From: Candidatus Magasanikbacteria bacterium RIFOXYB2_FULL_38_10
GTDB taxonomy: Bacteria; Patescibacteriota; Patescibacteriia; Magasanikbacterales; UBA10003
Direction of reading: 5' to 3'
Assembly: GCA_001783145.1 (NCBI GenBank)
Contig: MFQT01000017.1
Coordinates: 30,119 to 94,118 of the forward strand
Length of the DNA: 64,000 bases
Positions 4,235-4,377 of the stretch are shown piece by piece. Every line of letters starts with the position of its first letter. Positions within the stretch are counted from its first letter, which is position 1. Made by a program: the position numbers and the translations under genes. The notes below the pieces were generated by a model. The model worked only from the letters and a program-made list of their open reading frames with translations, had not been told where the DNA came from and did not search any database.

Positions 4235-4255
4235 TGGTGACCCGGCTGGGGATCG
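4235..4255. repeat. exact 21-nt direct repeat of the tRNA-Lys 3' end (second copy at 4302-4322); att-like scar
   Basis: tggtgacccggctggggatcg occurs identically at 4235-4255 and 4302-4322. The second copy is the 3' acceptor/T-stem end of the tRNA-Lys gene. Sequence diverges immediately beyond the 21 nt. Confidence 0.8.
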
Positions 4256-4301
4256 TGACCAAGCGTACCAGAGAAGCTGTGCAGCGCTTTTGTTTTTTAA
4301 A

Positions 4302-4377
4302 TGGTGACCCGGCTGGGGATCGAACCCAGGACCATCAGCTTAAAAGGCTGTTGCTCTACCAGCTGAGCTACCGGGCC
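4302..4377 (-). tRNA. tRNA-Lys (anticodon UUU), CCA encoded
   Basis: Minus-strand sequence GGCCCGGTAGCTCAGCTGGTAGAGCAACAGCCTTTTAAGCTGATGGTCCTGGGTTCGATCCCCAGCCGGGTCACCA. It has a 7-bp acceptor stem, D-arm GCTC/GAGC, anticodon loop CTTTTAA and T-arm CTGGG-TTCGATC-CCCAG. Confidence 0.85.

Follow-up and report, generated by a model that had tools for sequence, protein, structure and literature searches.

A duplicated 3' end of tRNA-Lys in Candidatus Magasanikbacteria as a possible relic of site-specific insertion

INTRODUCTION

How did an exact second copy of the 3' end of a tRNA-Lys gene come to lie just downstream of the intact gene in a genome of Candidatus Magasanikbacteria, whose genomes are tiny and in which hardly any mobile elements have been recognised? 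The locus was analyzed within the window, that is, the whole 64,000-nt stretch of DNA under study, whose positions are used throughout unless another locus is named. Its surroundings are a cell wall and division cluster (mraY, ftsW, murG, translin, glycosyltransferase, and Mur ligase), and the genome has a G+C content of about 35%. Integrative elements that target tRNA genes leave a regenerated gene and a displaced fragment (PMC4383910, PMC9897764), and the tRNA remnants derived from integrated elements are partial, non-functional, and expected to be pervasive (PMC9897764). An earlier note, made from the sequence alone, had read the duplication as an attL/attR-type scar and had placed a foreign cassette on the 5' side of the tRNA gene.

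RESULTS

Anatomy of the repeat

The 21-mer TGGTGACCCGGCTGGGGATCG has two exact occurrences in the window, at 4235-4255 and 4302-4322; allowing up to 3 mismatches revealed no further site. Its chance expectation is 0.00, with zero matches in 100 dinucleotide-preserving shuffles. The proximal copy (4302-4322, minus strand) is the true T-loop-to-CCA end of an intact tRNA-Lys(UUU) with encoded CCA, located at 4302-4377 on the minus strand by both ARAGORN and Rfam (RF00005, 68.6 bits). The tRNA-strand reading of the repeat, CGATCCCCAGCCGGGTCACCA, takes in the final 5 nt of the T-loop, the 3' halves of the T-stem and acceptor stem, the discriminator, and the encoded CCA. Identity between the copies begins at T-loop position 56, and the T-loop is a canonical sublocation among the anticodon loop, the T-loop/T-stem, and the extreme 3' end. 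Such sublocations of tRNA integration, including a T-loop/T-stem class, were reportedly classified by Williams in 2002. The distal copy (4235-4255, minus strand), a tRNA gene fragment, keeps the orientation of tRNA-Lys and lies on its 3' side, 46 nt downstream. The positions and the tRNA-Lys(UUU) identity given in the earlier note were thus confirmed by exact search, ARAGORN, and Rfam, as was its gap of about 46 bp, the spacer at 4256-4301 (minus strand). The divergence it described just outside the 21 nt was seen as well: identity stops at both edges, and a T-rich low-complexity flank extends the match to 31 nt at 87%.

The spacer and the distal flank are unrelated (alignment score 6, shuffle mean 7.8), and the spacer did not significantly resemble positions 1-55 of the tRNA (anchored p = 0.05, local p = 0.34); therefore, a simple head-to-tail duplication is excluded. 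A second tRNA or pseudo-tRNA at the distal copy was rejected, with the spacer unlike tRNA positions 1-55 and with no tRNA or tRNA-like RNA detected in 4235-4301 by ARAGORN or by Rfam even at E ≤ 10. The locus resembles a tandem tRNA duplication followed by pseudogene decay in having a partial second copy downstream in shared orientation, but differs from it in that nothing significant extends beyond the 21-mer, the flanks are unrelated, and the T-loop boundary is sharp in two lineages (see below).

On the minus strand, the spacer forms an imperfect 11-bp hairpin. Directly 5' of the distal copy lies the 13-mer TGGTACGCTTGGT (4258-4270, minus strand), which is unique in the window and which, with the next bases, gives an imperfect T-arm-like hairpin (CTTGG/CCCAG); the bases 5' of the distal core thus read as an imperfect T-arm, CTTGG-TCACGATC-CCCAG. 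The flank beyond the distal copy (4144-4234, minus strand) carries an A-run, a weak hairpin, and a U-run (about 4195-4234), as well as an extended -10-like motif, TGCTATAAT. On the other side of the gene, a sigma-70-like promoter, TTGACA-17-TATGCT (4445-4473, minus strand), is directed into tRNA-Lys. A 3'-end duplication was sought in the other four tRNAs of the window and none was found, leaving tRNA-Lys as the only one of five to have one.

The window sequence is part of contig LBYK01000001.1 of assembly GCA_000996105.1. The duplicated region is identical across six contigs from NCBI, JGI (two), ENA (two), and Logan, and since these are independent assemblies, it is not an assembly artefact. 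With six identical assemblies from four pipelines, the empty shuffles, and an analogous duplicate in a related locus, the probability that the repeat arose by chance or in assembly is practically negligible.

Single-copy and duplicated sites in related genomes

Orthologous loci were gathered via homologues of MurG and of the protein of a neighboring GC-rich gene, plus DNA scans. Scans of genome and metagenome contigs with the tRNA 3' half yielded one organism only (L009, which equals L129), the clade being thinly sampled in these collections. As far as it is available, the tRNA-Lys sequence of L007, L009, L136 (partial), and L139 (partial) does not differ from that of the window.

The tRNA 3' flank, whose variability in relatives the earlier note had named as a check, was indeed variable, the gap to the next conserved gene ranging from 48 bp to 1340 bp and the second copy being absent, exact, or degenerate. 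Empty sites with a single copy were observed in L007 (MurG 73% identical to the window; next conserved gene about 48 bp past the tRNA 3' end), L135 (MurG 59%; about 100 bp), and L136 (MurG 62%, with about 80% nucleotide identity in mraY/ftsW; 1.34 kb with two extra ORFs). The corresponding distance in the window is 195 bp. In L130 and L131 (MurG 76% and 78%), no tRNA was present within 0.8-1 kb after murG. The second copy is thus not the conserved, invariant structural element that would have spoken against the scar: it is missing in L007, L135, and L136, has a new spacer in L139, and is degenerate in L009.

In L139 (MurG 73% identical to the window), which comes from a sample unrelated to that of the window, an exact 20-nt second copy, GATCCCCAGCCGGGTCACCA, was found at a start-to-start distance of 170 bp from the real tRNA end. 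Identity starts at T-loop position 57, one base off the window boundary, and the 151-nt spacer differs from that of the window and contains a pair of perfect hairpins (2270-2293 and 2304-2333). Downstream of each copy come an A-run, a hairpin, a T-run, and a 23-nt tail, TAATATCTAAACAAAAYAAAAAA (2178-2200 and 2347-2369). The tails agree at 22/23 positions, and the hairpins differ in sequence with pairing kept. Beyond the distal copy, the DNA has no homology to the tRNA body, and a third relic, GGTCATCA, adjoins the murG terminator. As a separate observation, the region 2139-2455 of L139 holds three nested tRNA-end relics, each with a terminator-like hairpin.

The exact copy is missing from L009, the close relative of L139 (MurG 88% identical to L139 and 73% to the window), which has a degenerate one, TGGTACGCTTGGTTAGCCTCCAGCCCTTTCACCAAAAA on the tRNA strand, the window counterpart being TGGTACGCTTGGTCACGATCCCCAGCCGGGTCACCAAAAA. 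The two relics align with a score of 27 versus 9.0 ± 1.5 for shuffles, and TGGTACGCTTGGT is identical in both although the surrounding intergenic DNA is unalignable. The spacers of the window, L139, and L009 (46 nt, 151 nt, and about 60 nt) are all ORF-free. The distal flank of the window resembles the L139 flank after the relic (p = 0.011); its likeness in architecture to the flank next to the genuine L136 tRNA, with TCTTGCGG in common, is suggestive but short of significance (p = 0.32).

Between the terminator of a micro-ORF (described below) and the tRNA-Lys 3' end, L136 carries a 1.3-kb insert (4492-5769) with two co-oriented ORFs of 208 aa and 96 aa and no second tRNA-end copy bounding it. 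The island genes beside the tRNA in L136, L130, and L131 had no Pfam, PHROG, or PADLOC match. A weak tblastn match of the 96-aa ORF at window positions 61743-61901 was judged spurious, lying inside a 457-aa housekeeping-like ORF, and an inverted 10-mer of L136, TCCCCAGCCG, 44 nt from the tRNA, was discarded, as such 9-10-mers occur elsewhere at chance frequency. Compared with the window, L136 is a mosaic, with about 80% identity in mraY/ftsW, 92% at about 4011-4165, and an unalignable murG 3' end, a sequence pattern that suggests recombination in the region.

Many independent metagenome contigs (L003, L005, L006, L136, L137, and L139) end inside tRNA-Lys, at window positions 4348-4374. The probable reason is that the 76-nt tRNA is identical among co-occurring Magasanikbacteria species and gives branched assembly graphs; strain heterogeneity appears to be the inferior explanation of these breaks.

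Could a local rearrangement that is not site-specific, such as replication slippage, illegitimate recombination, or exchange, anchored on the tRNA, with DNA taken up from a related species, have produced these repeats with neither integrase nor element? The mosaicism of L136, the L139 repeat that takes in flanking sequence (the 22/23 tail) besides the tRNA end, and a tRNA that is identical in lineages with 73% MurG identity and is thereby a ready homology anchor all fit such an origin, as does the fact that an integrase or element was not found in the window, the related loci, or IMG/VR. The unrelated flanks in the window, which preclude a head-to-tail arrangement, and the DNA beyond the distal copy in L139, which is not tRNA body, speak against it. 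Homologies of 20-21 nt are, moreover, short for RecA-dependent exchange. In the T-loop, the boundaries in the window and L139 are no more than 1 nt apart, as would rarely happen with random breakpoints, and this near coincidence in two lineages favors a site-specific join. On balance, we regard a rearrangement of this kind as possible but unlikely.

The distal copy in the tRNA-Lys trailer

Together, the T-arm-like hairpin, acceptor strand, CCA, A-run, and terminator make up what could be a maintained cis-element in the tRNA-Lys trailer, serving transcript processing or termination, or else a decoy or secondary attachment site. The copy precedes the first U-run and would probably be part of the primary transcript; it is exact over 21 nt in the window and 20 nt in L139, and the 13-mer has been kept between the window and L009 amid unalignable intergenic DNA. 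In L139, the hairpins differ yet stay paired and the tails are conserved. However, the copy is missing in L007, L135, and L136 despite the same tRNA and is degenerate in L009, and the spacers differ wholly in length and sequence between lineages. The minus-strand fold of 4140-4305, which covers the trailer of the window, was no better than shuffled sequences (z = -0.11), and no Rfam family was matched. A maintained function of this kind is therefore judged improbable.

Search for an integrase, cargo, and a free element

The statement of the earlier note that the window lacks an integrase gene was borne out: no tyrosine recombinase box-II motif was found in the window by a regex screen, and phmmer searches with XerD and lambda Int against six-frame ORFs of the window and seven related loci gave no match at E ≤ 10. 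No cargo was present in the 46-nt spacer. Scans of IMG/VR with the 21-mer, an 18-mer, and the junction gave 0 hits each; of 119 hits to a 15-mer from the conserved arm, none exceeded chance level or had similar flanks. Of the attL/attR-type scar proposed earlier, the repeat geometry, the empty sites, and the variable flank held up; the integrase origin is a conjecture, with integrase, cargo, and free element all absent from these searches.

The GC-rich gene on the 5' side of tRNA-Lys

The supposed foreign cassette corresponds to an ORF of 492 aa at 4677-6155 on the plus strand, with 69% G+C overall and 95% at third codon positions (murG of the window, 35%). Its lysine codons are AAG in 33/33 cases, against a genome background of 152 AAA and 21 AAG. 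The same gene was found in L007 (4656-6113), L009 (4153-5556, minus strand), and L135 (9646-11118), with third-position G+C of 99%, 79%, and 78%, respectively, so that values across the four lineages range from 78 to 99%; those of murG are 33-40%, and the genomes have 35-41% G+C. In all four, it occupies the same position, with the same divergent promoter and structured leader, at a MurG identity of 58-74%. The proteins of the window, L007, and L009 are 29-41% identical. The synteny in four lineages and this degree of protein identity indicate that the gene is a long-term resident and no recent import, and third-position values of 78-99% kept across lineages with 58-74% MurG identity cannot be explained by unameliorated horizontal transfer. 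By these sequence comparisons, the gene is an old, vertically kept resident whose composition appears to be actively maintained, not a recent tRNA-linked insertion. The designation as a foreign cassette was consequently abandoned, the ORF being syntenic in four lineages and having no att-type link to the tRNA.

The family has ten members in a search of 1.84 billion representative proteins. The protein gave no match to Pfam, PHROG, PADLOC, or PDB sequences; its AlphaFold model is mostly helical (pLDDT 78) and matched no PDB fold at E ≤ 0.001. A hidden recombinase was considered for this protein and rejected, with no match to a family, fold, or defence system. The deposited NCBI annotation has an ORF antisense to the gene (window 4551-6137, minus strand; 11742-13328 of L001, minus strand, 528 aa), but the conservation of the protein across genomes and the order GC3 > GC1 > GC2 show that the plus-strand frame is real and the antisense call is not.

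Other features were noted around the gene. A palindromic divergent promoter, TTGACAAAATCTGTCAA (4445-4485), whose motif is conserved in L007, L009, and L135, combines the minus-strand tRNA-Lys promoter with TTGACA-17-TATGAT with TG (4457-4485) for the GC-rich gene on the plus strand. It is followed by a structured, conserved 5' leader of roughly 190 nt (4486-4676, plus strand), for which RNAalifold on 5 sequences predicted 44 pairs, 15 of them with compensatory changes; the leader includes a long hairpin at 4514-4629 as well as two GC hairpins immediately preceding the Shine-Dalgarno sequence, and no Rfam family reached threshold for it. Past the terminator of the GC-rich gene and before the translin gene, whose start is probably an ATG near 6451, there is a perfect 26-nt AT-rich inverted repeat (6366-6391 and 6415-6440, 23-nt loop).

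On the other side of tRNA-Lys, between it and murG, a conserved block at 4056-4106 (minus strand) has 3-nt periodic conservation and can be read as a micro-ORF of 16 codons, four of them Cys (MRFDPCPGCGNEPCTC). L007, L130, L131, L135, and L136 carry the block in nearly identical form; it is missing at that position in L009 and L139, and it had no match in Rfam.

DISCUSSION

We assign an even probability to the reading, based on sequence comparison, that the distal 21-mer is a displaced tRNA-Lys fragment, the relic of a site-specific insertion with crossover in or near the T-loop. In such an insertion, the incoming DNA would have brought its own T-loop-to-CCA segment, which would now complete the functional tRNA at 4302-4322 (an attL-type core), and the original tRNA 3' end would have been shifted downstream to 4235-4255 (an attR-type core) together with its original terminator-like flank. 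Later deletions would have removed nearly all of the inserted DNA, the 46-nt spacer being its sole remainder. We infer that a tyrosine-type integrase made the join, which of the copies is the original, and that the insert shrank by deletion; since integrase, cargo, and free element were not found, this mechanism is put forward with about as much doubt as confidence. The predicted attP is TGGTACGCTTGGTCA-CGATCCCCAGCCGGGTCACCA-TTTAAAAAACAAAAGCGC, with arms TGGTACGCTTGGTYA-core-TTTAAAAAACAAAAGCGC, and the predicted empty site is GGGTCACCA joined to AAAAAAAGACTCTTG, in one copy. The imperfect T-arm 5' of the distal core would have the look of an element-supplied core-type binding arm.

More than one event of this kind would have taken place in the Magasanikbacteria clade. 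The variants in L139 and L009 favor recurrence, and repeated use of tRNA-Lys is the more likely reading of these sequences. Exact copies of 20-21 nt in two lineages and a degenerate one in a third need either several events or selection, and it would be unusual for both cores to be kept while all but 46 nt between them was deleted. Other findings also count against an insertion with core duplication: the flanks after both copies in L139 share the 23-nt tail, where duplication of the att core only predicts none; the only large insert seen beside the tRNA, the 1.3 kb of L136, has no bounding second copy; and orthology of the window's distal flank with the tRNA flank of L136 lacks statistical support.

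It is also conceivable that, in these genome-reduced, integrase-poor CPR bacteria, very small non-autonomous modules, each consisting of a tRNA 3' end, a terminator hairpin, and a conserved tail, serve the 3' flank of tRNA-Lys and were repeatedly inserted at the T-loop, or that they were kept because the additional tRNA-end copy is a decoy attachment site or a processing signal. The recombinase for such insertions would act in trans and could belong to a phage, an episome, or the host itself. We consider this quite improbable; if true, the 13-mer and the nested L139 modules would have a function and would not be mere remnants.

Cis-mobilizable elements (CIMEs) of Streptococcus are integrase-less, bounded by att sites, kilobases long, and mobilizable in trans, and they are thought to derive from larger elements through deletion. 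The tRNA-Lys locus is like them in having att-type repeats with no recombinase gene between, but its unit of 67 bp is too short to be a plausible substrate. As in the attL/attR cores of tyrosine-integrase elements (Islander, PMC4383910), a direct repeat runs from the T-loop to the 3' end, co-oriented and on the 3' side of the tRNA, the gene is regenerated, and relatives have single-copy sites; unlike in those elements, only 46 nt separate the copies, and integrase, cargo, and a matching free element were not found. An example of the T-loop class is the attP core of Ms6, located in the T-loop of tRNA-Ala (PMC1762012); that core is 26 nt long, and in contrast to it, exact identity in the window begins within the T-loop and leaves part of the T-arm uncovered. 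Catalogued tRNA remnants are likewise partial 3' fragments beside a complete gene, but published ones still flank kilobase-scale islands, such as the 44-bp repeats around the 21.4-kb PYG1 (PMC9897764), whereas the island is gone in the window.

Of greater interest than the scar is the anomalous composition of the GC-rich gene, which merits its own study. For the repeat, a relic of insertion would mark tRNA-Lys as a recurrent recombination site in Candidatus Magasanikbacteria, the footprint itself being of the textbook kind, and the predicted arm sequences could be used in hunting the element.
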